Shown: positions 17,805 through 37,679 of the stretch, in pieces | How positions within the stretch are numbered: position 1 is the stretch's first letter | How the letters are laid out: every line of letters begins with the position of its first letter | Source of the DNA: an uncultured Chloroflexia bacterium | GTDB taxonomy: Bacteria; Chloroflexota; Limnocylindria; Limnocylindrales; CSP1-4 | DNA: 64,000 nucleotides | Assembly: GCA_963833225.1 (NCBI GenBank) | Contig: CAWHXD010000007.1 | Coordinates: 256,001 to 320,000, forward strand | Reading direction: 5' to 3' | Position numbers and translations under genes: made by a program | Notes under the pieces: model-generated | Database searches by the model: none | Told to the model about the DNA's origin: nothing | Seen by the model: only the letters and a program-made list of their open reading frames with translations

Positions 17805-20304
17805 CACCGGCATCGTAGCCGGTGAGGGCGACGCGGGCGGGGATCTCCGGGGTCGTCGCCGCGGAGGTCCGTGGAGTCCCCGTGGTCCGGACCCGCAGCC
17901 CGTCCGGGCGCAGCCCCACCTCCACCGTCCCGTCGAGGTCCGTGCGGAGGATGCGCGCCCCGATGTCGCGCAGCCGTGCAAGGGTCGACGCGGCCGGGTG
18001 TCCGTAGTCGTTGTCCGCCCCCACCGAGACCAGCGCGAGCGTCGGCCGCAGGGCCGCGAGGAGCGGCGCACTGGTGGCGGTGGCGCTGCCATGGTGTGCA
18101 ACCTTGAGGACGTCGATGGCCGGGAGGCCGCGGGCGAGCAGCGCCGGATCCACGTCGTCCTCGGCGTCGCCCGTGAGCAGGAATCGGCGGCCGTTGGCCT
18201 CGCCGAGGAGGACGATCGAGGTGTCGTTGATCCCCCGTCCCGTGGCGGCCGGTTCCGTGGGCACGCCGGGGTCCGGCCAGAGCACCGTCAGCGAGATCTC
18301 GTCGAGGCGCAGCCGGGCACCCGTGGCCAGCGTCGCCCTCGGCGGGCCGTGCTCGAGGGCCGCATCCCAGGCCGCCCACCCTGGTCCCGGTCCGTGCATG
18401 CCGGGTTCGAACACCTGCCCAACCCGGTACCGCTCCAGCACCCGCACCAGGCCCGCGACGTGATCCTCGTGGGGATGGGTCAGCACGATGATGTCGATCC
18501 GCCGGTCCCAGGGCGGGACGCGCTGGTCCAGGGCCACCAGGAGGCGGTCCGGGTCCGGCCCGCCATCGACCAGCATGCGCGCACCGCCCCGGGTCTCGAC
18601 CAGGATCGCGTCGCCCTGTCCCACGTCGAGCATCACGAGCCGCGTGGACCGCCCGGCGACATCGGCCATCGCGAGCGTCGACAGCGCCACGACAACCGCC
18701 GCGACGCCAAGCGCCAGCCGGCTGCCGCGCGAGGCGGGGATCGGCAGGCGACCAGCCGTCGCACCGGTCCCGGCCCGGGGCGACGGTGCCTGTTGACCGG
18801 GTCGTCGCTGCCCCGGCCGCCGGCGCCGACGGGCGCGCGAAGCCCGGAGCCGCCGGATCATGCCGGGCGCCCCCAGGACCAGCACCGCGGCCATGAGCGC
18901 CGCGGCCGGCGCCGCCTCCGGCGGGATCGGCACGGCCGCGAACGGCACCCCGGCTCCCAGCCGCACGAACGCGACGATGAGGTGGAGCAGCAGCCAGGCC
19001 GGCAGGCCGAGCATCGTTGCCAGCCCGTCCGGCAGCCCGGCCATGGACAGGGCGCCGCCCCCCATCGCGACCACGCCCGCGCCCATCGCCGCCGGCACGA
19101 GCGGGACGACCGCAAGGTTGACCACCGGCGCCACCAGCGACAGGCGCCCGAACGTGACCAGCACGTCCGGCAGCGTCGCCGCCTGGGCGGCCAGCGAGAT
19201 CCCGAGCCCCTCCGCCAGCCAGCCCGGGATCCGCCCGCCACCCAACCCCGCAAACCAGCGGCCCAGCGGCGTTCCCCAGGCCAGGAGCCCGGCGGTGGCG
19301 ACCACGGACAGCCGGAATCCGGCATCGCCGATCATCGTCGGGTCGACCACCAGCATCGAGAACGCGGCGAGGGCCAGGGCCGCCGGCGCGCGTGCCGACC
19401 GCCCCGACTCCCGGGCCAGCAGGACCACCGCCGCCATCACGGCCGCCCGGACCACCGACGGCGAGGCGCCCGCGGCGAGCACATACGCGCCGATCGTGCC
19501 CCCGACCACGATCGCGACCGCGCGGCGCGACCGACCGCGCATCAGGGCGCCCACGAGACCCGCCACGATGGCGATGTTCCAGCCCGAGATGGCGACCACG
19601 TGGCTGACGCCCGCCGTCGCGAAGTCGGCAGCCAGCGCCCGATCCACGCGCTCCCGGAGGCCCACCAGGATCCCCGCGGCCAGGCCCGCCTCCGGCTCCG
19701 GGAGCGAGACCTGCAGCGCGTCACCCGCCGCGTCCCGGGCCGGCTGGAGCGACAGGCCGCTCGCCCGTTCAACGATCCCGAGCGATCGTGCGTCCAGGCT
19801 GCCCGCGGCGCCCGTGCGGCGCAGGTACTCGCCGTAGCCGTCGTCCTCGGGCGGCGGTCGCAGACGGCCGTCGACCTCCACCGTGTCACCCGCGTGGACC
19901 GCCGGGAACGATGGCAGTGTTGCCGCAACACGCACCGGCCCCGGTTCCACCTGCAGCGCGAGGCGGGCGACCTGGCTCCCGTCCCGCGGTGAGCCCACGG
20001 AGTCCACGACCGCCGTCCAGGGCCCCGGCGTGGCCGGCAGCGGCGGGACGGGGGGAGCCGGCGGACCCAGCAGCAGCCGGAGCGCGACCAGGACCGCCCC
20101 GATGCCCGCCGGCGTCAAGGGAGCGACAGCCAGCGCCCGGGGAACCGCCAGCCCGATCGACACCGCCAGCAGCCCCACGACCAGGACGCCGGCCATCGGC
20201 CCGCCCGCGTACGCGACCGCTGCCGACACGGCGGCCCCGATCGCGAGCCACGCGCTGCGCGGGAGCGCCGGGAGCGCCGGGAGCGCTGGCGCGGCCGGCT
20301 TCAC
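17329..20304 (-). CDS. comEC: ComEC/Rec2 DNA uptake channel with metallo-beta-lactamase domain; low-complexity tail overlaps HD gene
   Basis: HVVAISGWN, SPSVVRA, GFRLS, LDVGQGDA, THPHEDH, LKVAHHGS, YGHP. Confidence 0.95.
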   Translation of the reverse strand: MKPAAPALPALPALPRSAWLAIGAAVSAAVAYAGGPMAGVLVVGLLAVSIGLAVPRALAVAPLTPAGIGAVLVALRLLLGPPAPPVPPLPATPGPWTAVVDSVGSPRDGSQVARLALQVEPGPVRVAATLPSFPAVHAGDTVEVDGRLRPPPEDDGYGEYLRRTGAAGSLDARSLGIVERASGLSLQPARDAAGDALQVSLPEPEAGLAAGILVGLRERVDRALAADFATAGVSHVVAISGWNIAIVAGLVGALMRGRSRRAVAIVVGGTIGAYVLAAGASPSVVRAAVMAAVVLLARESGRSARAPAALALAAFSMLVVDPTMIGDAGFRLSVVATAGLLAWGTPLGRWFAGLGGGRIPGWLAEGLGISLAAQAATLPDVLVTFGRLSLVAPVVNLAVVPLVPAAMGAGVVAMGGGALSMAGLPDGLATMLGLPAWLLLHLIVAFVRLGAGVPFAAVPIPPEAAPAAALMAAVLVLGAPGMIRRLRASRARRRRRPGQRRPGQQAPSPRAGTGATAGRLPIPASRGSRLALGVAAVVVALSTLAMADVAGRSTRLVMLDVGQGDAILVETRGGARMLVDGGPDPDRLLVALDQRVPPWDRRIDIIVLTHPHEDHVAGLVRVLERYRVGQVFEPGMHGPGPGWAAWDAALEHGPPRATLATGARLRLDEISLTVLWPDPGVPTEPAATGRGINDTSIVLLGEANGRRFLLTGDAEDDVDPALLARGLPAIDVLKVAHHGSATATSAPLLAALRPTLALVSVGADNDYGHPAASTLARLRDIGARILRTDLDGTVEVGLRPDGLRVRTTGTPRTSAATTPEIPARVALTGYDAGDDHSDTPRGRPPAVVPGPARLVAPARVRGRGRRRLARPGDRRQRDAVRRARGRGGGAAPRRGQDPGRAGGWRPPRRGVRRVAGGAGLPEARAARAGSSREPIRRRGGHAAPGRGAARGADHRLRGQACWPADRAHGGPVRLVAPALPVGTGRAGAGRG

Positions 20305-20999
20305 GGGCCGATCGTGACGAGCGGCCGGAGCTTGTCCATCGTCGCGGCGCTCACCACCTTGCGGGCGAGCAGGTCATCGACGCTCGTGAACGGTTGCTCC
20401 TCCCGCGCCGCGATGATCTTGGCCGCCGTCACGGGCCCGATCCCGGGCAGCGTGTCCAGCGCCTCCGCTGAAGCCCGGTTGAGATCGATCGGACCCGCGC
20501 CGCCGGCCACCCCGCCGCCCTGGTCCGTGCCAGGAGCCGCTGGATCCTCTCCGCGAACGGGCACGCGGATCTTCTGGCCATCCGTGATCGACGCCGCGAG
20601 ATTGAGCTGCCGGTCCACCAGGCCCGCGTCGACCGTCGCCGCGTACCCGCCTGCCGCGTCGATCGCGTCGGCGACGCGGGCGCCCGCCGGCAGCTGGTAC
20701 ACGCCGGGGCGAGTGACCGCCCCACCGACATCCACCACGAGCATGACCGCAGGTGCCGGACTTGCCGAGCGCGTCGCGCCGAGGTCTGCCGGCATCGCGC
20801 CCAACCCATTCGCGCCGTCCACGCTGATCACCGGCTCCTCCCCGCCAGCGACCAGGACGGCCCCGACGCCGACCAGGACCGCGAGAACGGCCGCGACGAC
20901 GGCGGGCCACGGCAGGCCACCAGGCGTCGCTTGGTGATCGGGCGGGGCTTCGGGCTCAGAGGCCTCGAGGACGCGCCACGGCGCGCTGCTTGGCTCCAC
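20301..20999 (-). CDS. comEA: ComEA DNA receptor (TM + SLBB + HhH)
   Basis: VDVGGAVTRPGVYQL, LNLAA, IDLNRASAEALDTLPGIGPVTAAKII; GTG start inferred. Confidence 0.92.
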   Translation of the reverse strand: MEPSSAPWRVLEASEPEAPPDHQATPGGLPWPAVVAAVLAVLVGVGAVLVAGGEEPVISVDGANGLGAMPADLGATRSASPAPAVMLVVDVGGAVTRPGVYQLPAGARVADAIDAAGGYAATVDAGLVDRQLNLAASITDGQKIRVPVRGEDPAAPGTDQGGGVAGGAGPIDLNRASAEALDTLPGIGPVTAAKIIAAREEQPFTSVDDLLARKVVSAATMDKLRPLVTIGP

Positions 21000-21082
21000 G
21001 GGTCGGGTCGCTCCCCGGCGGGATCCGGCGGCGGGCGTGGGTGTGGATGCGGTTGCGAGCACAGGTGGAGCGCCCGTGCGGG

Positions 21083-21095
21083 AGGGGGCACGTCC
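21083..21095 (+). repeat. attL core AGGGGGCACGTCC
   Basis: Identical to 29917-29929; flanked by host arm CCCGTGCGG (21073-81) and element arm TGCGGGT (21104-10). Confidence 0.85.
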
Positions 21096-21110
21096 ACATA
21101 TAATGCGGGT

Positions 21111-22355
21111 ATGAGTACCGCCGTCGCCTACCTTCGCCGGAGCCGGGTGGACACCCGCCGCCCTGGCACCGTCTCCCACGCCGAGCAGAAGCCGCCGTCA
21201 CCGCTCTGGCCGCCCAGCATGGCGATCACGATCTAGATGTTCTCGAGGACTGGGGGCGATCGGGCCGAGACGAGAAGCTCGCCAAGCGCGACGCGTTCGC
21301 CGATCTCCGGGCCCGCGTCAAGCGTGGCGACGTGACCGCCGTCTACGCCTACGACGTGTCGCGGCTCGGGCGCTCCGTCGTGACCCTCCACCAGCTGATG
21401 ACCGAGTGCAAGGCCGCCGGCATCCCCATCCGCTGCGCGTCGGGCTACTCCCCCGACATCAGCACCGCCGAGGGGCGGCTGGTGTTCGCCAACCTCGCCG
21501 CGATGTTCCAGTACCTCGCCGAGAGCGTGCAGGAGCGGGCCGCGCGGCGCGTCGAGGAGCGGCGCGAGAAGGGGGAGCTCATGGGCCCCGCGCCCTTCGG
21601 CTACCGGCTCGTGGACGGCAAGCATGTCCCCAACCCGGCCGAGGACCTCGCCACCGTGATCGAAACGTGGCGCGCGTCCGAGAGTGTCGCGGAGGCGTGC
21701 CGGCGCCTGAAGATGCCGGGGTGCGGACCCGGTCAGGCGTCCAGTGGCTACCATCGACGCTGTACGCGATCCTCGAGCACGAGGGGCTGCGCGTCCGCAC
21801 CCTGCAACGTGGACGGCCCGTGAAACGCACCTACCGGTTCTCGCGGCTCCTGCGATGCCCGCACGACGACTCCGCGCTCGTGGGCAACGGCAAGAACGGG
21901 CTCGTGCAGTACGAGTGTCGCGCGTCGCGCCTGACCGGCGATCACCCGTACCCACGCAGCATCTCCGAGCGGCTGATCCTGCCGTGGGCGGAGACTGAAG
22001 TGGACAGGCTGCGGCTGCCGGTGGACACGGTACAGACCGCGGTGGACAACGCCGAGCGCCGGGCCATCCTCTCCGGGCGCTTGGACCGCGCCAACGAGCT
22101 CTACATCGCCGGGAGCATCCCCAAGGACCGATACGAGCGGGAGGCCGCCGCGGTGGCCGCGGAGCTCGACGGCTTGGACGCCGAGGACGAGATGATCGCG
22201 GTCCCGCCGATCGGGCCGCACGATTGGGACACTTGGGCGCCCGCGGACCTCAACCGGACACTCCGCGCCCTCTGGTCCCGCGTCGAGCTCGGGGCCGATA
22301 TGCGGCCTGTCCGTGCGGAGTGGCGCAGCCGGCCCTGTGGAGCCCGGCGTCGTGA
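21111..22355 (+). CDS. Large serine recombinase (integrase); 3-4 apparent frameshifts
   Basis: AVAYLRRS (catalytic Ser), YDVSRLGR, PFGY, recombinase domain, Zn-ribbon (LLRCPHD..YEC), coiled coil; assembled from frames of ORFs 20931, 21332 and 21406. Confidence 0.88.
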
Positions 22356-22675
22356 TCCTGCGACCGCTCGCCGTCGTGGGTTCGGCTGCCCGGTGCCCCG
22401 AGCCCACCTGTGGAGCCTGGATTGGCCGCGTCCGACGCGACCGGCGCGTCACCGAGCGTCACGGGCAGGAACCAACGCCCTATGTCGCCGAGACCTTGAT
22501 CCTCTCGACGCTCTGGCGGCCCGTCAACGGCGCTTGGCGCCTCGGCCGCCACCATGGGATGGACGAGCGGACGGTTACCTTCAGGCCGCTACCGATCGTG
22601 TGTCCCAAGTGCCACCACAAGGCCGCCGCACCGCCGCTGGTTTCGCGATTGCAGCCGAGGCCGCACACGGCGTAG
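22352..22675 (+). CDS. Small Cys-rich (CPEPTC...CPKC) protein, candidate recombination directionality factor
   Basis: GTGA overlap with inferred recombinase stop; two Cys pairs. Confidence 0.5.
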   Translation: MILRPLAVVGSAARCPEPTCGAWIGRVRRDRRVTERHGQEPTPYVAETLILSTLWRPVNGAWRLGRHHGMDERTVTFRPLPIVCPKCHHKAAAPPLVSRLQPRPHTA

Positions 22676-22772
22676 TATCTGGCTACCAACCCCAAGCGCG
22701 AGCCGACAGCGCGGCTCCACCGCTCTGCTCAACCGACAACGACGGGCAGGGTCAACGTGGAGTCGCGTTTCG

Positions 22773-22948
22773 ATGTTGTCGGAGAAGAACCCGCGCAAGG
22801 TTCGCGCCGGTCAGGCTGCGATGCGCAAGCGCTGGGGGCCGCAGCGAGTGCTGGCCTGGACCAGCTCGATCCCGTCACCCGTGAAGTGATCCTGTCCATC
22901 GTCGAGGCTCGGCGCAACGCCGCCGCTGCCGACGCCGGGCAGCAGTAA
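22773..22948 (+). CDS. Small basic protein, probably one frameshift (MLSEKNPRKVRAGQAAMRKRWGP...LDQLDPVTREVILSIVEARR)
   Basis: Two overlapping short ORFs join near 22853; TTGCAG-N18-TAGTAT promoter candidate at 22649-22678. Confidence 0.5.
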
Positions 22949-23167
22949 GGGCCGCCGTCATGCGAGCAACCGGCAGCCCTCCGTCCAAGCCTACCCCCGA
23001 CGAGTGGGAGCGGGCTAATCACGCCGCCTACATGGTCGGCGTCATCCTCCGATACCGGCACCCGGCTGGGTCGTCGCGGAGCGGTTCCGCGAACTTGAGG
23101 CCGCGGGAGAGGCCCACAACGACGCATGGTTCGGGACCGCGACGATGGTCCGCGGCTGGGACCAGAC

Positions 23168-24142
23168 GTGAGCCTCACCGAGCCCGAGTGGGTCCGGGAT
23201 GGGCCTACGATCATCCCTGAGGCCGTCACACGGCCCCGGCTGGCCGTCACCGGCTCGCACCGCCTCTCGGTCCTGCGCTGGCAGGAGCTGATGACCTCGC
23301 CGCCCGAGCCGCCGCCGGTCCTCCGGGCCGGTATCCCGGAGGTGGGCGTCACTGTCCTTGCCGGGAGCCCGAAGGTGGGTAAGACACTCTGGAGCTCCCA
23401 GACGGCGCTGGAGATCCGCAAGCCCGTCCTGCTCGTCATCGAGGAGGGCAGCATGAGCGGGATCACCTACCGGCTGGCCAGACAGGCCGCCGCCCTCGAC
23501 ATTGCCGCGCCACCCATCGCGGTTCTGCACCGTCAGCGGATCCGCCTGGACAACCGGAGCAGCGTGGACGCCCTCCGGGCCATCGTGGCGGCCGAGCGGC
23601 CCGCGCTCGTGGTCCTGGACCCGCTCAACCGGCTCCACGGGGCCGATGAGAACCGGCCCACGCAGATGACCCCGGTCATGGACGCCATGGCCGGCATCGC
23701 CTACGACTACGGGGTCGCGGTCCTGGCGATCCACCACCTGTCCAAGCCCTCCGCCGAGCGGCGCGGGGACATCTGGGACCGCTACCGCGGCGCGTCCTCG
23801 ATCCGCTCCGGCACGGACGCCAACCTCGCGCTCGACGGGTCCGGAGACCGCGTGCGGCTGAGGGGTGAATTCCGGGATGCAGAGCCGCTGTCCGAGTACC
23901 TCGAGCTCGACCGCAACACGCTGCTATTCGGGCCGGGCGACGCCCCGGAGGCGCCGACCAAGGTGGACGCCCTCGCGCTGCGCCTGTTCGTCCAGGAGCG
24001 GACGCAGGTCACGGCGGCACAGGTCATGGCCGAGTACGCCGTGTCGAAGATGACCGCCCTTCGAGCCCTTCGAGCCCTCGGCTGTGACGAGTTCCCCGGT
24101 GTCCGCGGGACCCTGACGTTCACCCTCGGAGGTGGCTCGTGA
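23168..24142 (+). CDS. AAA_25 / RepA-like SF4 helicase with possible C-terminal HTH
   Basis: Walker A GSPKVGKT, Walker B LVVLDP, IHHLSK, RGASS. Confidence 0.88.
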   Translation: MSLTEPEWVRDGPTIIPEAVTRPRLAVTGSHRLSVLRWQELMTSPPEPPPVLRAGIPEVGVTVLAGSPKVGKTLWSSQTALEIRKPVLLVIEEGSMSGITYRLARQAAALDIAAPPIAVLHRQRIRLDNRSSVDALRAIVAAERPALVVLDPLNRLHGADENRPTQMTPVMDAMAGIAYDYGVAVLAIHHLSKPSAERRGDIWDRYRGASSIRSGTDANLALDGSGDRVRLRGEFRDAEPLSEYLELDRNTLLFGPGDAPEAPTKVDALALRLFVQERTQVTAAQVMAEYAVSKMTALRALRALGCDEFPGVRGTLTFTLGGGS

Positions 24143-24146
24143 GCCT

Positions 24147-24300
24147 CCACCGTCCACCGTCTAACGACCGTATACCCACCGTCCATTGGACGCTGTCCAG
24201 GGACTGTCCCACCGTATCGTCACACGCCCCCTTTAGGGGGTGGGCTATGCGGTGGACGGTGGACGCCCGGAAGGGACAGTCCCAGAGGGACGACCGTATA
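24147..24300. repeat. Putative replication origin: iteron-like repeats around a central hairpin
   Basis: CCACCGTCC copies and inverse GGTGGACGGTGGAC; GGGACTGTCCC (24200) vs GGGACAGTCCC (24273); ACGACCGTATA x2 (24164, 24290); CCCCCTTTAGGGGG (24227-40). Confidence 0.6.
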
Positions 24301-24421
24301 GCGCGCCCGGCGAAGCCATGGGGGCTTTGGCTAACTCCGCCACCCCCGCCACCCTCCACCCGCGCCTTAGGCGACTCGCTGTGAGCCTGTCCCTTTCCCG
24401 ACCCGTTTCCCAGAGGTTGAC

Positions 24422-24730
24422 ATGACCCCACCCATCCGCCCGCCCTCGCACCTGTCCAAGCCGTCCAAGGCGCTTTACATCGATGTCATGGGCAGCTACC
24501 TGCTCGAGCCCCACCACGTGGCCCTGCTCGTCAAGGCGCTGGAGGCCCGCGACCGTGCCGACCAGGCACGCGCCGAGATTGGCCGCGGACCACTCATGGT
24601 CACCTCCCGGCTCGGCGAACAGAAGCCCCACCCGCTGCTCACCGTCGAGCGGGACGCCCGCGCCCAGTTCGGCACGCTGATGAAGCAACTCGGCCTGGAC
24701 ATCGACGGCCCGCCGTCCAACCGGAGATAG
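24422..24730 (+). CDS. Phage terminase small subunit, P27 family
   Basis: PPSHLS...EARDRADQAR...G..KPHP....ERDAR..F..L.KQLGL pattern; GAGG RBS. Confidence 0.85.
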   Translation: MTPPIRPPSHLSKPSKALYIDVMGSYLLEPHHVALLVKALEARDRADQARAEIGRGPLMVTSRLGEQKPHPLLTVERDARAQFGTLMKQLGLDIDGPPSNRR

Positions 24731-24732
24731 CC

Positions 24733-24942
24733 ATGCCCTCCCCCAAGCGCCGCCCCAAGCTGCACCGCCCGCCCCCTGCCGATCTGTCCGGCCTCGCCTA
24801 CTGGGAACTCGTGGAACTCGCCAAGCGTGGCGAGATCACCTGGTCCGACATCTCGGCCGAGACCCACCGTCAGGTCCTCGCGTCCAACGGCGGCATCGAC
24901 CCCTACGCCCACCTCCGCATCGACAGGGAGCCCCTCGCATGA
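24733..24942 (+). CDS. Hypothetical protein (69 aa)
   Basis: GGAG RBS; tight coupling with neighbours (ATGA overlap downstream). Confidence 0.6.
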   Translation: MPSPKRRPKLHRPPPADLSGLAYWELVELAKRGEITWSDISAETHRQVLASNGGIDPYAHLRIDREPLA

Positions 24943-25180
24943 ACGCCACCGCCGCCGAAATCGCCGAGGCAATCGCCAACCTGGCCGCCGCCGCCCACCA
25001 GCGGCTCGACCGCGGCGACCTGTTCGCCCTGCTGGACGATCCGGCCGCGGAGAAGCGGGTTGACGTGGACGGAGACACCTACCGGCTCACGGCCGGCGAC
25101 GTGACCCTGTGGAAGGCCCTACGGCCGCCGTCGCCGCCGCGGTCGAGATCCTGGCCGCCAAGCGCGACAAGCTGAACTAG
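24939..25180 (+). CDS. Hypothetical protein (~80 aa; probable frameshift near 25120)
   Basis: ATGA overlap; alternative frame ends AVAAAVEILAAKRDKLN*. Confidence 0.55.
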
Positions 25181-25337
25181 CCCGTTGCCGGAACGTGCGC
25201 CCTAGCGGTAACATGTTCTCGCCGCCCAGAGGGTGGCAGTCAACGGGGCAGCGCGCCCGGTGGGCCCAGAGGGCCCGTCAGGAGCAGCGCCCGCCGCCAG
25301 AGGACCGCGCCAGAGGCGAGGCCCACGAGGCAGCGGA

Positions 25338-26709
25338 ATGGCCGACCCGGCCGCCTATCTGCTGGCGATCTCGGCGCCCCTTGGAGACACCGTGACCCCG
25401 ACCAACTTCGACTACACCGCCGAGCAGCTTCGTGCGCTCGATCATGCCATCGAGGGCGCGCGTACCGTCGTCCGGCTCGATGAGATGCGAGACGACGGCA
25501 AGGAGTTGACCTTCAACCAGTCGACCGACCGCGCCGAAGCATCCGGGCGTGGAACGACGCGGCCGACATCGTGCCCAGCCTCGCCCGGTGGGAGAGCATC
25601 ACTACCGACAGCGAGGCCTTCACCCGCTCCCTGGCCACCCTCCGCATGCACCTGCAAATGGGCAAGGGCGCAGCCCTCAGGGCCGAGATGCGTGCCAACG
25701 GCGCGGCCTACCTATTCGATGGAACGCTGGACCGCCCTGGCAGCGGCAATCCCGAAGCCATCACGATGAACGACCAGATCCGCGAGCTCTTGCAGTCCGG
25801 CGAGCGGCAGCACGACTTCGAGTACCTCGAGACCGACGCCATCCGCGAAATCCGCCGTCCTTCGCCGCCGGCGAGCAGAGGGCCATTGCCAACTTCTCGG
25901 ACGCCTCATCGCTGCATGTCAACGACTTCCGGCGACAGGTGGCGATGTACGCCCGCACGGCCAGTCCGTGGCTCGGACTGGCAACCGTCGTGACCTCCGA
26001 CGCGGGCCGGCCTCTGATCGTGCCCAAGCTCACGGGTGACGGCACCGTCTACACCCCGGGTGAGGGGACTGCCGTGTCCGAGAGCTCGGCCGTGCTGGAC
26101 TCCGTCACCGTGACCCCGACCGGGTTCAAGGCGTTGACGTACATCAGCCGTGAGAGCTGGGACGATGAGGAGGTGGACCTCGGCCGCCTGCTTGCCGCCT
26201 CGCACGCGCGGGCCATCGGCCTGGCGTTCGGCTCGACCGCGACCACGGCCGTCCTGGCTGGGATCAGAACGGCGGCACCGCGTCCGGCCTCGGTGGCGAC
26301 GGTACGGCCGTCGTGCCGTTCCTGGATACGAGGACTTGATCGACCTCCAGATGGGTCGAGCAGCCCCGTACCGCGAGGGCGGTGCCTACGTGATGGCCAA
26401 CGGCGCCATCACCAAGGTCAAGAAGTTCAAGGACGGACAGGGGTCCTACCTCTGGCCGACCGGCGCCCTGCCCATCGGTGGCATGGCGTATGAGGACCCG
26501 AACCTGGCGCTCCCGCCTCGGCCACCAAGAGTGTGTGCTTCGGGGATTGGGGCGCCGCCCTGATCATCAAGGCCACGCCGATCCGGGTCGAGGTGTCGCG
26601 GGACTTCCTGTTCAACACCGACCAGGTGGCCATCAAGACCGTCCAGCGCATCGCCCTCGCGGTGCAGGACCCGGCCGCTGCCGCGTACCTCGTGAGCGCC
26701 GATACGTAG
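25338..26709 (+). CDS. HK97-fold major capsid protein; about 4 apparent frameshifts
   Basis: PLIVPKL...GEGTAVSES...ISRE..DD..VDL...A.AIG; KFKDGQGSYLW; FGDW...VEVSRDFLFNTDQVAIKTVQR. Confidence 0.82.
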
Positions 26710-26945
26710 ATCCCCCGGACCGCCAGTACCCCTCCGGCCTGTCCACCTCAATCGCCCGCACGGGTTCCGCGTCGTCGCTCCACCTCGAAGGCGCGGCGCT
26801 CTGGCAGCAGCTTCGGGTCCGGCCGGAGCGTGCGGGCTAGGCCGTCGCTGACCGGCGGCGCAACCCCCCGTGGGGAACGCAGGACCTTCGAACGAGGTAA
26901 AGTCACGTACGGTCATGACAACGATGACGAACGACCAACCCGACA

Positions 26946-27770
26946 ATGCGTGATCGGGACCGCGACAAAGTCGCGCTCCGGGGCTCCATCGTTGACTTCG
27001 GCGATCCGCCGGTTATCGAAGTGGCCCTGTCGACCGAGATCCGTCGTTTACCGCACATGAGCCTGGTCCGCATCGTGGACGCATGGCACGAGCTGTATCA
27101 GGATCGCTTCCCGGAGGTTCAGGAACAGGCTCGCTACGCGCCCCCGCCGCTAAACGCGGAGCGCGGGCAGAGGATTTGCATGATGTCCCAACTTCCCACG
27201 CCAAGGCTGTGGTTCCTCAATCAGGCTCGAACCGACCTCATTCAGCTCCAGAACGACTGGTTTGGGCGCAACTGGCGCAAGGTTGAGGGCGCCGAGGAGT
27301 ATCCACGATACGGCGTCCTCCGCGAGGCGTTCGCCCACGACCTTGGGCTACTGCGGGACTTCACCGAGCGCAATGCGCTGGGATCTCTTGTGCCCACTAC
27401 CTGTGAGATCACGTACATCAACCACATCGAACTGGCACCAGACTTGGGTGTTGAACAGGTCCTCGGCGTGCTATCGCGGGATGGTGGAGGCTTCCTCCCC
27501 AAGATGGAGGCAGGTAGCCTGTCGGCTCGCTTCGCAATTACGGACGGCGAACACGCGCGAGGTACGCTTGCCGTCAACGCCTCGACCGCCACCCGGGCTG
27601 GCGACAATGCCAGCATTCTCGCGTTGCAGGTGACGGCTCGAGGGAACGCCACCACAGGCGATGTTGCTGGCGTGCTGCGATTTTTGGATCTCGGTCACGA
27701 ATGGGTTGTGCGTGCATTTGCGGAGTTGACGACCGAGCAGATGCACCAGCGCTGGGGGAGGACGCAATGA
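26946..27770 (+). CDS. TIGR04255-like protein
   Basis: FGDPPVIEVAL, RLWFLN...LIQLQND...NWRK...YPRY, CEITYINHI, HEWVVRAFAELTT...W pattern. Confidence 0.8.
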   Translation: MRDRDRDKVALRGSIVDFGDPPVIEVALSTEIRRLPHMSLVRIVDAWHELYQDRFPEVQEQARYAPPPLNAERGQRICMMSQLPTPRLWFLNQARTDLIQLQNDWFGRNWRKVEGAEEYPRYGVLREAFAHDLGLLRDFTERNALGSLVPTTCEITYINHIELAPDLGVEQVLGVLSRDGGGFLPKMEAGSLSARFAITDGEHARGTLAVNASTATRAGDNASILALQVTARGNATTGDVAGVLRFLDLGHEWVVRAFAELTTEQMHQRWGRTQ

Positions 27771-28284
27771 CGGCTCTGCTGCCAGAGACACGGTACCTAT
27801 CGGACCACCTGGTGAATGGCCAGTTCGAGGACTTTGCCGCCACGGGGGCCGCAACGACTGGGAGTCCGGCGTCTTTCACCTATCGCCTGGGGACAGCAGA
27901 TCTTGCTCCTTACATCGCACGCCAACGAGCTGACGAGTTCGTGTCGCGCGCGATCGAGCGACTGGAGTTGATGCGCCCGAACTGGGACGGAGACAACGGG
28001 CGGGCGATCTCGCCTCGAGCCCTTGCATACGCGGCCGGGCTGGTTCCCGATCTTGCTGCCCAGGGGGTGATGATCCCAAGCCTCGTTCCGGTGTCGGATG
28101 GCGGGATCTCGATTGAGTGGCACCGCGGGGGCCGCCAAAGCTGACCCTCTACGTCCCTCCGCGGTTCCCGGACGAGGACGCCGTCGCCTACTACCTCGAC
28201 GAGCGCACTGGCAACGAGTGGGAGGAAGCGCTGCCAGCCAACGAGTCGCGCGTTGAGGCGCACTTGGCGCAGTTCCTGGAGTAG
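27767..28284 (+). CDS. Conserved hypothetical protein (NWDG...P..DGGISIEW); probable frameshift near 28138
   Basis: GGAGG RBS, ATGA coupling; second frame continues LTLYVPP...HLAQFLE*. Confidence 0.7.
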
Positions 28285-28343
28285 CCCGATTTGGAAACGT
28301 CGACGCTGACTGGCAACGCTTCCGTGAGCCAGGGGACCGAGGT

Positions 28344-28754
28344 TTGACTGAGGCGCGGGTAGAGGCTGATGCCATCCTTCTGCGCAAGATCACTCCCGAT
28401 TGGGTGGTGCCCGACAACGAAGGTGGGTTTCGTGTGTCGAGTGCGGCGTACAGAGGCAATCGGACTGCCTCGAATTTGAGGGCGTTCTCGGTGTTCGTCG
28501 AGGCCCGGCTGACAGCGTCCGGGGCTGACGCCTCCGTACTCTTGGACGCTGATCAAGGCCTCTGGAGCGTCGTGAGCATCGACATCGGGACCGTGCGCGA
28601 AGTCGACCTTGAAGCGTGGTACCGCCCCGAAGGGGTGGACCCCATCCTAATTGAAGCCCACGCAGAGGTTGAAGGATCCATCAGCACGAAGAAGGCGTCG
28701 ACACTGGCTCGCAAGTCGCGACAGGTGATTTGGCGAGGGTCGTCGTCAGCGTGA
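28344..28754 (+). CDS. Putative ADP-ribosyltransferase-fold toxin-like protein
   Basis: LLRKI.P.W...RVSSAAY...FSVF...V.I..G.VR...AHAEV.G pattern; fold assignment is inference. Confidence 0.55.
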   Translation: MTEARVEADAILLRKITPDWVVPDNEGGFRVSSAAYRGNRTASNLRAFSVFVEARLTASGADASVLLDADQGLWSVVSIDIGTVREVDLEAWYRPEGVDPILIEAHAEVEGSISTKKASTLARKSRQVIWRGSSSA

Positions 28755-28806
28755 GTGCTGGGTGCCATATCCCGCCCGCTTGCCAGTTCGCGATTGTCCT
28801 CCGGGC

Positions 28807-29055
28807 CTACGAGGGCGTTCCACCCTCGCGGATCAGCCGAAGGCACCGAGCCAGTTCCCGGATGACCCCCAGCTCGGTCGGGGCAATGGCCGTCCACTCC
28901 TGCGACCGAGCGCCCGCCTGAGCCCACTCTCGCGGATCGAAAGCGTACTGCTCCCACACATTCCGCCCCTCGTCGTAGGACGGCCGGCCCACGAACCAGC
29001 CCGGAGGCTTCGCTTCGTAGAGCTCGCTCCAGGCGGCCTCTAGGTCGGTGGGCAT
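28807..29055 (-). CDS. Hypothetical protein (82 aa), leaderless
   Basis: TACCAT 7 nt upstream of ATG; protein-like, Trp-rich composition. Confidence 0.6.
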   Translation of the reverse strand: MPTDLEAAWSELYEAKPPGWFVGRPSYDEGRNVWEQYAFDPREWAQAGARSQEWTAIAPTELGVIRELARCLRLIREGGTPS

Positions 29056-29100
29056 GGGGCCGATGGTACGGCTATGGCGGCCTTGCGGATCAGTGGTCTG

Positions 29101-29772
29101 CTACTCGCCTGTCCTTTGGGCCATCGAGACCGCGAGCGCGAGGACCGCGACGACTGCACCTGCCACCAGTATCCACAGTCCATACCCCACCGAGGCGCGG
29201 GTGCTCTCACTGCTGGCATCTATGAGGCGGTTCGACATATTGACTAGGTCGTACGCGGACAGCGCGACGAGCACCAGGGCGCCTAGCAGTGCCAGCGGAC
29301 GGCGACGGCGGAAGCCGGTCGCCAACGGAAACGCAAGAACGGCAACCAGCACCGCAAGCCAAAGAGTCAGGACGCCGTCGCCGTCCGTGCCGGCGATAGA
29401 GAAACTGCCAAGACCGCTCTGCGCGCTGGCCCACGGCAGGACACTGCCGACTGCAGCCACAACCGCAGCACCAGCAGCCACATAGCCAAGTTGCGTCGAG
29501 GCTTGGCGAGCGAGCGTGGCGGCTACCGGATCGACCGGGACGGTCCGTATGCGGCCCCAGCTCAGGATCGCGTCCCCACCCAGCCTGTCGAGGACGGCTT
29601 CGCCAATGTTGTCGAGCGGCACCCGAATTTCGTCGCCACTCTTTGTGGACCGGATGATGACCACGCCCGGCTCGAGACGCAGCACCTCGCCACGAGTGCC
29701 GGTCGCTGGTGTCGGAACCTTGTACTTGATGCGAACACGTTGACCCGTCCGTAACTCCGGAAGGCCTGTCAT
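29101..29772 (-). CDS. Membrane protein: N-terminal SH3/KOW-like beta domain + 4 TM helices
   Basis: AAGGAG RBS; LRTGQRVRI...RGEVL; four hydrophobic segments (LPW, GYGLW). Confidence 0.7.
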   Translation of the reverse strand: MTGLPELRTGQRVRIKYKVPTPATGTRGEVLRLEPGVVIIRSTKSGDEIRVPLDNIGEAVLDRLGGDAILSWGRIRTVPVDPVAATLARQASTQLGYVAAGAAVVAAVGSVLPWASAQSGLGSFSIAGTDGDGVLTLWLAVLVAVLAFPLATGFRRRRPLALLGALVLVALSAYDLVNMSNRLIDASSESTRASVGYGLWILVAGAVVAVLALAVSMAQRTGE

Positions 29773-29916
29773 CCCATGCTCCTTTGACACCTCGGTCTTC
29801 GCGACCGGCTCGACGGGTGGTTGCCTGTGAGGCCAGCCTACGCGGATCGCGGCGATGCCGAAGCGTTCGGGCGGGGTCTCCTTCCATGCGCCCGATGCGT
29901 GACCCGCAAAGTTGAC

Positions 29917-29929
29917 AGGGGGCACGTCC
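29917..29929 (+). repeat. attR core AGGGGGCACGTCC
   Basis: Identical to 21083-21095; element arm ACCCGCA (29902-08), host arm CCGCACGGG (29932-40). Confidence 0.85.
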
Positions 29930-30052
29930 TTCCGCACGGGTGTCCGGTTCAAACCCTATCCGCCGCCACTTATCTGCCACTTACGCGGAGGGTGGTACTG
30001 GGCGCTCCCGCGGGAGTCAGGCTAGGATCGGCCCCCGACACCGAGGAGCCGA

Positions 30053-30679
30053 ATGGTCGAGGATCCCTTCCCGCGCGAGCGCGTTGCCGCCACCCTGCGC
30101 CGGATGCCCGCGTACCTGAAGCTCGCCTGGCGTCTGGGCCGTGATCCGCTGCTCAGCCGCGTGCGGCGGACGGCCATCGTCGCGGCGGCCGGCTACCTCG
30201 CCTCGCCCATCGACCTCGTCCCCGGGGTCATCCCGCTCCTTGGGCAGCTCGACGACATCGCGGTCGTGCTGGCCACCCTGCGGTTCGCGCTCGCGGGGCT
30301 CGACGCGGAGCGACGCCACATGCATCTCGAGGCTGTGGGGCTTGGTGACGACAACCTGAACGAGGACCTGCGGACGGTGGCGGTGACGAGCGCCTGGCTG
30401 GTCCGCGCCGGCGCGAGGACCACGGGCCGGGCCGTGGTGCGGGGTGGGAGGCTGGCCGCGCGCGGCGCGAAGGTGGCCGGCAGGGCGTCGATCAGCCTTG
30501 CCTCGGCAACCCGGCGGGCGACGTCGAGGGCGACGCCGGTGGTGAGGGATGCGGCCGGGCGGGGAGTGGGAGCCGCGAAAGGGCTGGCGTCGCACCGCGC
30601 GAGCCGTGCCCTCGAGGACGAGCAGCTCGCCGTCGACGTGGACGATGCCCCCGGCGCGGAGGAGCCGCCGACGGCGTAG
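30053..30679 (+). CDS. YkvA/DUF1232 family protein
   Basis: YLASPIDLVPGVIPLLGQLDD; GAGGAG RBS. Confidence 0.88.
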   Translation: MVEDPFPRERVAATLRRMPAYLKLAWRLGRDPLLSRVRRTAIVAAAGYLASPIDLVPGVIPLLGQLDDIAVVLATLRFALAGLDAERRHMHLEAVGLGDDNLNEDLRTVAVTSAWLVRAGARTTGRAVVRGGRLAARGAKVAGRASISLASATRRATSRATPVVRDAAGRGVGAAKGLASHRASRALEDEQLAVDVDDAPGAEEPPTA

Positions 30680-30712
30680 GGCCGAACATCGGCTGCCTCC
30701 TCGAGGGCAACG

Positions 30713-30961
30713 CTACGCTGCCCGGCCCTCCAGGCGCGCCGCGGCTGTGCACGCGCCATCGGACAGCATGTGCGCGACGCTCGCGACCCGACGCAGCGCG
30801 CCGGCGAACGCCCGCCGCAGCGGCCCGGGGCCCGACGGACGGCCGACGGGAACCATCGGCGCTGACCCCGCATCGAAGATCCGGTTGAGCGCCGCGAGCT
30901 CGGCTTCCTGTCGGCGGTCGTGGATGATGTCCTGGGCGAGCATCGCGTAGATCTGCCACAT
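30713..30961 (-). CDS. Hypothetical protein (82 aa)
   Basis: GGAGG RBS before MWQIYAMLAQD. Confidence 0.6.
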   Translation of the reverse strand: MWQIYAMLAQDIIHDRRQEAELAALNRIFDAGSAPMVPVGRPSGPGPLRRAFAGALRRVASVAHMLSDGACTAAARLEGRAA

Positions 30962-30977
30962 GCCTGGAGCTCCTCCG

Positions 30978-31100
30978 TCAGTGTCCGAATGAGTGGTTGT
31001 GATCGGTGTGCTCGAAGCCGTCACGGCTCTCTGCCGCGCCGGCAAGCGCGGCGACGACGAGCACCGCGAACAGGGCGATGACCATGATCAGGGCGTCCAT
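30978..31100 (-). CDS. Small 40-aa membrane peptide (absent from ORF track)
   Basis: GGAGG RBS; MDALIMVIALFAVLVVAALAGAAESRDGFEHTDHNHSFGH. Confidence 0.6.
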   Translation of the reverse strand: MDALIMVIALFAVLVVAALAGAAESRDGFEHTDHNHSFGH

Positions 31101-31126
31101 CGGGGGACCTCCGTGGGGCGGGTCAG

Positions 31127-31205
31127 GTAACCGGCACAAAGGACTTCAACAGTTACGAACGATAGCGGCTTGCAAGTAACCTGTCAAGTGGTATAACGTG
31201 GTTAC
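31127..31205. promoter_or_regulatory. Divergent promoters with two GTAAC-N20-GTTAC operators
   Basis: Operators 31127-31156 and 31176-31205; minus-strand TTGACA-17-TATCGT and plus-strand TTGCAA-16-TATAAC. Confidence 0.7.
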
Positions 31206-31213
31206 CGACAGTT

Positions 31214-31831
31214 ATGCCCATCGACATTCCCACCACCCCGCACGCCCACACTGCCGACCTCGAGGCATGCCTCGATCTGATCAACACGGTCGAGCTGACC
31301 GACGGGGTTCCCGACGACCACATCCCCACCGCCGAGGACGCGATCGCCTTCCTCGCGGAGCGCGACCTGGCCCACGAGGCCGACCTGCGCCGCCAGCAGC
31401 GTCGCGAGGGCGACGCGTGGCTGGACCGGGTCCGGGAGACCCGTTCCGCCCTGCGTGAGCTGTGGGATTCGCAGGTCGAGGGTCGCGCACCCGCATCGGG
31501 CGCCCTCGTCACACTCAACGCCCTGCTGGACCGCGCGCCACGAGTCGAGCTGCGCGCCACCCTGGCCGGCGTCGAGATCACGCACGACCACCGGCCCGAC
31601 GATCCCACGGGCGAGGCGCTCGCTCGCACCGCCATGCCGCTCGTGGAGGCGATCGCGACCGGCCAGACGGACCGGTTCCGGATCTGCGCCAACGACGGCT
31701 GCCGCTGGGTGTTCGAGGATTCCTCGCGCGCGGGCCGCCGCCGATGGTGCGACATGACCACCTGCGGCAACCGCGCGAAGGTCCGGCGGTTCCGCTCGCG
31801 GCAGCGCGAGGGCTCGTCAGCGCCCGGCTGA
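31214..31831 (+). CDS. CGNR zinc-finger / ABATE domain protein
   Basis: CLDLINT; CANDGCRWVFEDSSRAGRRRWCDMTTCGNRAK. Confidence 0.93.
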   Translation: MPIDIPTTPHAHTADLEACLDLINTVELTDGVPDDHIPTAEDAIAFLAERDLAHEADLRRQQRREGDAWLDRVRETRSALRELWDSQVEGRAPASGALVTLNALLDRAPRVELRATLAGVEITHDHRPDDPTGEALARTAMPLVEAIATGQTDRFRICANDGCRWVFEDSSRAGRRRWCDMTTCGNRAKVRRFRSRQREGSSAPG

Positions 31832-31851
31832 GCGCACCGCCGGGCGGCCGG

Positions 31852-32790
31852 TCAGAGCTGCTCGAGGCGCGGCCTGACCTCCGTCGCGAACCGCGTCATC
31901 GACTCCTCGTCATAGTCCGCGGGGACACCCACGATCAGGTGCCGATACCCGAGCGCGACCTTGGGGGCGATCTTCTCGACCACATCGTCCACCGTGCCCA
32001 CCGGCTGGTCCTCCCAGTGCCGGGCGACCCGGTTGCGATCGAACGCCGCGTGGAACAGGCGCTCCGCCTCGGCGCGATCGTCGCGGATGAACACCGTCCC
32101 GACGCCGGTGGACCGCTCGATCTCGGACGGGTCGCGGCCGACGGTCTCGCAATGGCGGAGGAGGACCTCCTCCTTGCGCTGGAGCTCCTCGATGGTGCCG
32201 CCGACGTTGTTCATATCGGCGTACTTCGCGACCAGCTTGAGCGTGACCTGCTCGCCGCCACCGCCGATGCAGATCGGAAGGTGCGCCTGGACGGGTGGCG
32301 GGAGGTTCCGCGTGTCATGGCTCGTGTAGTGCGGGCCCGCCGCCGTCGGTTCGGTTCCGTCCAGCATCCCACGCATGATCGGGAGGGCCTCACCCAGCCA
32401 GCGAAGGCGCTCGGGGAAGCCCGACCCGAAGTCCAGCCCGAAGTCCTGGTGCTCCTCCTCGAACCACGCCCCACCGATGCCCAGGATCGCGCGGCCGTTG
32501 CTGATGTGGTCGAGCGTGGTCGCCATCTTGGCCGTGAGCGTCGGCGCCCGGAACGAATTCGCGCCCACCATGAGGCCGATCCGGATCCGCTTGGTCGCCT
32601 GCGCCCAGGCCGCCAGCGTCAGCCAGCCCTCGTAGTTGGGCCCGGTCGAGTCACCGACGATGGGGTACAGGTGATCCCAGGTCCACAGGGTGTCGTAGCC
32701 CAGCTCGTCGGCACGGATGCCGGCCTGGAGCAGCGCGGGCCACTTGGTGTACTGGTTCCAGCAGAGTGCGCCGATCTTGATGTCAGTCAT
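31852..32790 (-). CDS. LLM-class (F420/flavin-dependent) oxidoreductase
   Basis: WTWDH, AKMATTLDHISNGRAILGIGGAW, IGGGGE. Confidence 0.92.
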   Translation of the reverse strand: MTDIKIGALCWNQYTKWPALLQAGIRADELGYDTLWTWDHLYPIVGDSTGPNYEGWLTLAAWAQATKRIRIGLMVGANSFRAPTLTAKMATTLDHISNGRAILGIGGAWFEEEHQDFGLDFGSGFPERLRWLGEALPIMRGMLDGTEPTAAGPHYTSHDTRNLPPPVQAHLPICIGGGGEQVTLKLVAKYADMNNVGGTIEELQRKEEVLLRHCETVGRDPSEIERSTGVGTVFIRDDRAEAERLFHAAFDRNRVARHWEDQPVGTVDDVVEKIAPKVALGYRHLIVGVPADYDEESMTRFATEVRPRLEQL

Positions 32791-35044: not shown

Positions 35045-37624
<2,580 letters not shown>

Positions 37625-37644
37625 GGTCGGGTCCTGCCTCCGAT

Positions 37645-37679
37645 AGAAACGAAACCCCCCGCCGGTCCCGGCGAGGGGT
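37645..37679 (-). terminator. Intrinsic terminator after tRNA-Ala
   Basis: ACCCCTCGCCGG/CCGGCGGGGGGT stem followed by TTCGTTTCT on the minus strand. Confidence 0.65.

Follow-up and report, generated by a model that had tools for sequence, protein, structure and literature searches.

In the account that accompanies SatelliteFinder (de Sousa et al. 2023, PMC10085698), the layout of phage-inducible chromosomal islands (PICIs) is given as an integrase, a regulator, a replication module, a capsid-related gene and a small terminase gene (terS), the sections that describe it listing no tail, holin, portal or connector genes; the median size is given there as 9.5 kb. The capsid-forming PICIs (cfPICIs), where that account describes them, carry portal, head-tail adaptor and connector, protease and large terminase (terL) genes (PMC10085698). 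Candidate PICIs of Mycobacterium, as portrayed in the relevant parts of a further paper (PMC10654092), combine an integrase of either type with a major capsid protein and include phiRv1 and phiRv2, and the corresponding parts of both papers already class elements of the phiRv1 type as PICI-like (PMC10085698, PMC10654092). Here we describe an element in a 64,000-nt stretch of DNA from an uncultured, soil-type Chloroflexota bacterium (the window, G000:C7:256001-320000; all positions below are those of the window). The element lies at 21083-29929, and its 8,834 bp probably represent an integrated phage satellite of PICI-like kind that carries its own capsid gene.

In phiRv1, a serine integrase is found together with terS and with a prohead protease next to the capsid gene. 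To our knowledge, nearly all phage satellites recognised so far come from Proteobacteria and Firmicutes, with candidates in Mycobacterium, and we know of no cultured phage-host pairs of the satellite-helper kind in Chloroflexota. A full-text literature search returned no such satellite described for Chloroflexota, and the supplementary data of satellite papers may list further phyla. The only element that the search brought up was IME1 of Dehalococcoides, which, according to the portions of the preprint that discuss its nature, is now read by its authors as a filamentous-type virus; its gene content is unrelated to that of the island.

Boundaries of the insertion

The island is an insertion with base-exact ends in a 34-bp inverted-repeat site between comEA and a DUF1232 gene. 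It is bounded by two copies of a 13-bp direct repeat, AGGGGGCACGTCC, at 21083-21095 and 29917-29929. A lone repeated 13-mer in 64 kb is not rare in itself, about 30 pairs being the estimated expectation under even base composition, and the repeat is taken as genuine because of its surroundings: the symmetric arms on either side, the empty sites in related genomes, and the change in G+C content, which is 0.73-0.79 in the flanks and 0.62-0.72 within the island.

The arms form two concentric pairs. The outer pair, of 9 bp, consists of CCCGTGCGG at 21073-21081 and its reverse complement CCGCACGGG at 29932-29940, and places the symmetry axis of the host-side site between core bases 7 and 8. The inner pair, of 7 bp, is ACCCGCA at 29902-29908 and TGCGGGT at 21104-21110; both members are separated from the core by exactly 8 nt, which makes core base 7 the symmetry axis of the element-side site, and the centres of the two sites differ by half a base at most. 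Thus attL (21073-21095) is composed of the left attB arm (21073-21081), one spacer base and the core (21083-21095), and lies beside the inferred attP half whose arm, TGCGGGT, can be read directly at 21104-21110, whereas attR (29902-29940) runs from ACCCGCA through an 8-nt spacer, the core (29917-29929) and the bases TT to the right attB arm (29932-29940). The core repeats and all four arms are perfect. A short identical core, imperfectly symmetric attP and attB and a location outside tRNA genes, all seen here, are the hallmarks of a large serine recombinase site, and the inverted arms around both the host and the element site bear out the first-pass annotation, which had assigned them to this type of integrase.

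That annotation had also predicted the exact boundaries and an empty attB in the comEA-DUF1232 interval of relatives, and both predictions are confirmed by a comparison of positions 19000-32000 with 31 related genomes. In two of these, G008 (83% identity) and G013 (80%), alignments that end at 21095 and start at 29917 overlap by exactly 13 bp, and the genomes carry an uninterrupted 34-bp site with a single core copy, precisely as predicted. The same two are the only ones of the 69 other genomes of the genus in which the 34-bp site is found with at most 3 mismatches. The intact site in two relatives identifies the 8,834 bp, counted with one core copy, as an insertion. An assembly chimera is ruled out, because both junctions match the intact site in two other genomes.

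Gene content

The modules follow the order integrase, small genes, helicase, repeats, terS, capsid and cargo. This is the content and order that had been proposed at first pass; what had escaped notice is that both the integrase and the capsid gene are divided among several reading frames. All genes are on the plus strand, up to the last two of the cargo.

The integrase gene (21111-22355, 3' end uncertain) encodes a large serine recombinase of about 415 aa in three frames (21111-c.21190, c.21188-21720 and c.21721-22329). The first 25 residues, which hold the catalytic-serine motif, occupy a separate frame from 21111; the N-terminus, MSTAVAYLRRS, matches the invariant Y, R, R and S of four homologues, and its frame differs from that of the rest of the domain. 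In the frame of 21104-21820, a match to Resolvase (PF00239, E 2e-18) begins only at profile position 20; the third frame encodes the C-terminal half, and phrog_95 matches both larger pieces, with profile positions 361-563 of 651 covered. Four intact homologues (429-449 aa, 45-58% identity) align over all three frames. The Recombinase domain PF07508 is on record alongside PF00239 in two of the four; Pfam did not detect it in the window's own integrase piece, and a sequence search of the integrase against solved structures gave no match. Counting the unpublished genome G260, the family occurs in 47 of the 401 genomes examined in the order.

Next come four small open reading frames (ORFs) at 22313-22675, 22554-22889, 22676-22948 and 22960-23220, assessed with a plot of G+C content by codon position. 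They have no Pfam, PHROGs or NCBIfam match; a regulator or a recombination directionality factor may be encoded among them, and one more frame break may lie near 22880. An intact gene at 23126-24142 encodes an AAA_25 (RepA/DnaB-like) replication helicase of 338 aa (PF13481, E 1.3e-21, with primase/helicase PHROGs), which has 146 homologues at E<=1e-10. Some of these are fused to PrimPol (PF09250); in the island helicase no primase domain was found. Directly downstream of the helicase gene is an iteron-like cluster, a putative origin (24143-24360), made up of CCACCGTCCA in both orientations, GGGACTGTCCC palindromes and two copies of ACGACCGTATA, and overlapped by an 81-aa ORF (24139-24384). All three exact copies of CCACCGTCCA in the window fall in this cluster, as do 5 of the 25 copies with at most one mismatch.

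Next is the gene for a small terminase subunit of the P27/Terminase_4 type (24422-24730, 102 aa), which matches PF05119 (E 1.1e-6; 29.4 bits against a cut-off of 24.7) as well as phrog_83 and phrog_1496. Two small ORFs of 69 and 78 aa (24733-25175), with coding-type G+C periodicity and no family match, separate it from the gene for an HK97-type major capsid protein of about 455 aa (25332-26709), whose match to PF05065 is split over several pieces. The capsid gene changes frame by one base each near 25525, 25865, 26265, 26318 and 26485. It aligns with the intact capsid P0121 (450 aa; 69% identity over the 122-aa query piece) and with that of locus L023, and the five frame changes are what an end-to-end alignment with intact relatives of 385-457 aa requires.

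There are five cargo genes. The first encodes a TIGR04255-family protein of 274 aa (26946-27770; NCBIfam E 1.5e-10, 41.4 bits against a cut-off of 30, profile positions 4-252 of 252). It is followed by two adjacent genes within 27701-28754 (27701/27767-28144 and 28257/28344-28754), for which PADLOC gives weak matches to the two components of PDC-M32, a candidate defence system (PDC-M32A, E 3.5e-6, partial, profile positions 258-320 of 375; PDC-M32B, E 0.0032), and which have no Pfam or PHROGs match. The last two, on the minus strand (28807-29952), encode a protein of 82-97 aa (28807-29100) and a predicted membrane protein (29101-c.29770), neither with a family match in Pfam, PHROGs, NCBIfam or PADLOC. 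The ORF at 28807-29100 is present in multiple copies in the genus, with about 10 DNA matches in G015, 6 in G017, 2 in G001 and 2 more on G000:C19, and homologues of 50-58% identity stand beside serine integrases in loci L280 and L288; it appears to belong to a small gene family associated with mobile elements.

The claim that TerL, portal, protease and tail genes are missing is supported: the ORFs of the island gave no Pfam or PHROGs match to large terminase, portal, protease, connector, tail or lysis proteins, and neither tblastn nor tblastx found portal or TerL fragments. In the assembled genome, which is 86% complete, there is no portal (PF04860), no relative of the phage-type TerL and no second capsid, which shows no resident helper in the assembled part, although at that completeness this is not proof of absence. 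No relaxase and no FtsK/Tra-type conjugation or mobilisation genes were seen by Pfam in any ORF.

Because the integrase family and the AAA_25 relatives both occur without a capsid (for AAA_25, at loci L025 and L041), the island is a mosaic, in which integration and replication modules that are both common are combined with an island-type capsid. In the INPHARED phage records, tblastn gave no match for the capsid piece, and AAA_25 matched only at 25-33%, to repA-like genes of uncultured phages. Scans of IMG/VR for relatives of AAA_25 above 35% identity and of the integrase family found none, and therefore, as far as they reach, the islands themselves are not in that collection.

Capsid relatives and comparable islands

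The capsid family is small, with 29 representative clusters at E<=1e-10 among 1.84 billion. For 28 loci including the window, each with a capsid of at least 44% identity to the query, the ORFs were clustered, and in 22 of the 27 loci outside the window the capsid gene is accompanied by TerL (phrog_9), portal and/or S78 protease genes. The phage block consists of TerL (phrog_9, E 1e-38), portal (PF04860), S78 protease, capsid, glycosyltransferase, connector and tape measure. The 401 genomes of the order contributed three further loci of phage type, of which those in G031 and G014 belong to the same genus as the host, and at least 25 capsid relatives lie in full phage head-tail modules. An encapsulin or a gene-transfer agent was considered and rejected, because the capsid relatives sit in TerL-portal-protease modules. 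In the phage contigs L124-L152 and L228-L230 a glycosyltransferase gene is located directly 3' of the major capsid gene, and some have an NAD-dependent epimerase, which hints at glycosylated virions in these phages.

Three other loci, L023, L122 and L231, are compact islands with a tyrosine integrase, a small ORF or HTH_17 protein, AAA_25, small ORFs, the capsid and cargo, and no phage head or tail genes were found in them, except for tape-measure PHROGs on a 571-aa ORF of L231. L023 and L231, whose capsids are only 34% identical, share the ymdB-rny interval next to recX-recA in two different Chloroflexota genomes, and this interval looks like an integration hotspot for tyrosine-integrase islands. 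In the four islands the integrase is of the serine type here and of the tyrosine type in three, and at least three different sites are used; this variety argues for a stable design rather than a one-off product of deletion. In addition, a degenerate island with a serine integrase and the capsid is present at another site in G059, a genome of the same genus. At that locus (L232, G059:C9:348500-368499, at about 11-12 kb when read in reverse), the degenerate island adjoins a 1-kb stretch with a G+C content of only 35%, against about 70% for the genome.

A careful maximum-likelihood analysis of 51 capsids, with the window represented by the 122-aa piece, joins this piece to the capsids L023 and P0121 (support 98/97) and then to L122/P0127 (93/95), and no capsid from a phage context falls inside the group. 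The question raised at first pass, whether homologous loci consistently carry terL, portal or tail genes, thus has a mixed answer that favours a satellite: relatives in a phage context do exist, but the window capsid groups with two compact islands that lack such genes.

Frame breaks

The two breaks of the integrase (near 21190 and 21720) and the five of the capsid fall within about 2.6 kb of coding sequence. All seven are of the -1 type, and each fits the loss of one base beside a run of 2-3 bases. There is no in-frame stop codon and no larger indel, and similarity to intact homologues stays level across all of them. No breaks are seen in the AAA_25, terS and TIGR04255 genes, about 2.1 kb compared with full-length homologues or profiles. 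Programmed frameshifting was rejected as an explanation, seven shifts in two genes at unrelated sites not being credible.

That the assembly contains one-base errors follows from the single-copy leuS gene (35048-37678, minus strand), which is split by three one-base insertions relative to G008. A host error rate was obtained from 137 intact ORFs of G008 (133 kb), compared with contig C7 only; there were 13 frame-change sites, 12 of them of the +1 type, and an initial comparison under looser criteria found 21 changes, about four of which are doubtful, in 15 of 89 ORFs. The assembly contains roughly one indel error per 10 kb of coding sequence, and such errors probably depress the completeness estimate of the genome.

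Weighing the satellite interpretation

There are several points that weigh against reading the island as a phage satellite, or at least as a working one. The comparable islands number only three or four, and 11 of the 16 capsids that an initial tree places on the island side are without known context. The capsid of L231 is sister to a phage capsid, which suggests that it may be of independent origin, and its tape-measure-like ORF adds to the impression that L231 may be a decayed prophage. A capsid is present at none of 20 sampled loci with the same integrase family, and around L025, a relative of AAA_25, a stretch of 9 kb is free of capsid genes. Neither the other islands nor the related phages contain a relative of the small terminase, terS and all accessory island proteins giving no tblastn match at E<=0.01 in 36 related loci. 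No AlpA/HTH_17 or Stl-type regulator was found in any ORF or open frame of 22313-23220, where frame errors could mask a small gene; the related islands L023 and L122 do carry HTH_17. Mobilisation, including excision, replication, packaging and the helper itself, is a matter of prediction. Finally, the seven breaks are about 27 times as dense as those in host genes and of opposite sign (Fisher p about 1e-4), so that ordinary assembly error is no obvious explanation for them, and this copy may be a dead relic.

The last point concerns the state of the copy and not its kind. If the seven one-base deletions are real, the island would be an element of the same kind that is grounded, unable to excise or to build capsids, and kept only for its cargo, a possibility that we place just short of an even chance. 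Its density and sign of breaks, their confinement to the integrase and the capsid while AAA_25, terS and the TIGR04255 gene are spared, and the clear degeneration of the second serine-integrase and capsid island of the genus, in G059, all speak for it. Yet the assembly has proven one-base errors, in leuS and at the 13 host sites; seven independent inactivations would usually bring a stop (1-5 by our estimate), a larger indel or a drop in similarity; the core repeats and four arms are perfect; and lower read depth over a polymorphic island could yield consensus errors of the deletion type. For the integrase and the capsid, real decay and assembly artefact seem to us about equally plausible.

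Two other origins would change the kind of element. The island could be the remnant of a full-length prophage from which portal, terminase, protease, tail and lysis genes were deleted, and it is true that most other members of the capsid family occur in complete phage modules, that the key genes are frame-broken, and that one comparable island, L231, has a tape-measure-like ORF. We nevertheless regard this origin as improbable. Both att junctions are perfect and only 8.8 kb apart; tblastn and tblastx found no portal or TerL fragments; the phage capsid gene is located between protease and glycosyltransferase, and here it follows terS and two small ORFs, an arrangement that would take several clean deletions within the element; the compact layout is seen again at different sites and with different integrases; and the window capsid belongs to a clade with islands and not among the phage capsids. 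Another scenario is a non-packaged integrative element, plasmid-like or mobilisable and with RepA-type replication, that captured the capsid and terS, for example as decoys against phage assembly. Such an element would fit the abundance of the integrase family, mostly without a capsid, the capsid-free AAA_25 relatives and a cargo that resembles a candidate defence system. We consider it unlikely: conjugation and mobilisation genes are missing by Pfam, terS and capsid beside a replication origin follow the packaging logic of a satellite, and the capsids of the clade remain 55-70% identical from island to island, a degree of conservation suggestive of selection for a functional capsid protein.

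Proposed mechanism

For an integrated phage satellite, all steps past integration (helper dependence, origin firing, redirection of the terminase and capsid assembly) are inferred, and the following scheme is offered as a working model. The integrase would act at the centre of the 13-bp core, where it recombines the symmetric site of the element with that of the host. Infection by a helper phage would lead to excision of the island, aided by a small factor, and the helicase would fire the adjacent origin. The island's small terminase could then steer the helper's large terminase onto island DNA, and its own capsid protein, together with the portal, protease and tail of the helper, would give particles that carry the island. 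Likely helpers are HK97-like tailed phages with capsids about 42-60% identical, contigs of which occur in two genomes of the same genus.

A broader proposal, which we make tentatively and with slightly more doubt than confidence, is that uncultured Limnocylindrales-type Chloroflexota host their own lineage of minimal capsid-encoding satellites, each made up of an integrase, an AAA_25 helicase with its origin, a capsid from a separate HK97 clade and defence-like cargo. Such satellites would live as parasites of HK97-like tailed phages from the same genus and would exchange integrases freely, with a serine type here and tyrosine types elsewhere. If true, these would be the first phage satellites recognised in Chloroflexota, with a satellite design that has a capsid protein but neither portal nor protease. 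The base-exact island with its satellite logic and the plausible helper-type phage contigs in the same genus offer a concrete satellite-helper pair to seek in soil viromes, a natural system in which to ask what advantage a capsid protein alone brings to a satellite, and a serine integrase with both sites defined. They also serve as a warning that errors in long-read metagenome-assembled genomes and real decay are hard to distinguish in mobile elements.

Host and insertion site

The host is a Chloroflexota bacterium (Limnocylindrales-like) and neither an actinobacterium nor a relative of Mycobacterium, since close homologues are found in records labelled 'Chloroflexota' and 'Candidatus Limnocylindrales'. 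The genome comprises 3.89 Mb in 20 contigs, and the genus sample consists of 70 genomes, every one of them an uncultured assembly.

The island is flanked by comEC and comEA on the minus strand and by the DUF1232 gene on the plus strand. The att site lies in a divergent intergenic region (20997-21095 and 29917-30053), upstream of the comEA-comEC DNA-uptake operon. The core sits about 26-86 bp upstream of two candidate comEA starts, and the insertion therefore parts comEA-comEC from its former upstream region. With that region displaced by 8.8 kb, the island could act as a putative switch on the competence genes. A second comEC-comEA-DUF1232 neighbourhood, 67-81% identical, is present on the 12.8-kb contig G000:C12, which probably belongs to a further strain or species included in the bin (contamination estimate 3%).

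Comparison with known satellites

The parallel with PICIs and phiRv1 that was drawn from the sequence at the outset stands, inasmuch as the gene layout is shared and the phiRv1 type is already filed as PICI-like in the parts of the two papers that treat it (PMC10085698, PMC10654092). Compared with model PICIs by gene content and layout, the island is near the median size and has the order integrase, replication, terS with a capsid-related gene, and accessory genes, the cargo being at the far end; by Pfam and PHROGs it has no tail, holin, portal or connector/adaptor genes. From the PICI core set, the integrase at one end and the small terminase are present, and of a primase-replicase module with adjacent origin the island shows the AAA_25 helicase and the iteron-like cluster, whereas a regulator, of the AlpA or Stl type, was not found in the island. 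It differs further in its integrase, which is of the serine type where PICIs usually have a tyrosine integrase, in an AAA_25 helicase without a primase domain, in a full major capsid protein (PF05065) instead of a capsid-morphogenesis factor, and in its host phylum, Chloroflexota.

The cfPICIs resemble the island as satellites with their own HK97-type capsid protein and small terminase. By Pfam and PHROGs, however, the island has no portal, adaptor/connector, protease or terL gene, and it is not a cfPICI. The probable helper lineage is formed by HK97-like tailed phages, recorded in IMG/VR and in two genomes of the same genus (L124-L152, L228 and L229). They share with the island a capsid of 42-60% identity and a high G+C content, but differ in the presence of TerL, portal, S78 protease, glycosyltransferase, connector and tape measure and in the lack of an integrase and AAA_25 module beside the capsid.

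The likeness to phiRv1 and phiRv2, as far as the source portrays these elements (PMC10654092), lies in the small size of the islands, the combination of an integrase with a major capsid protein, the location of the serine example away from a tRNA site, and the helper dependence that has been proposed. In gene content, the island differs from phiRv1 in that no S78 or other protease was found in it, and it comes from a different phylum. The suggestion of an undescribed family is therefore upheld for the host phylum and the sequence families, and not for the kind, because islands with an integrase, replication genes, TerS and a capsid have been described before. The kind of element is already known; the variant and the host are new.

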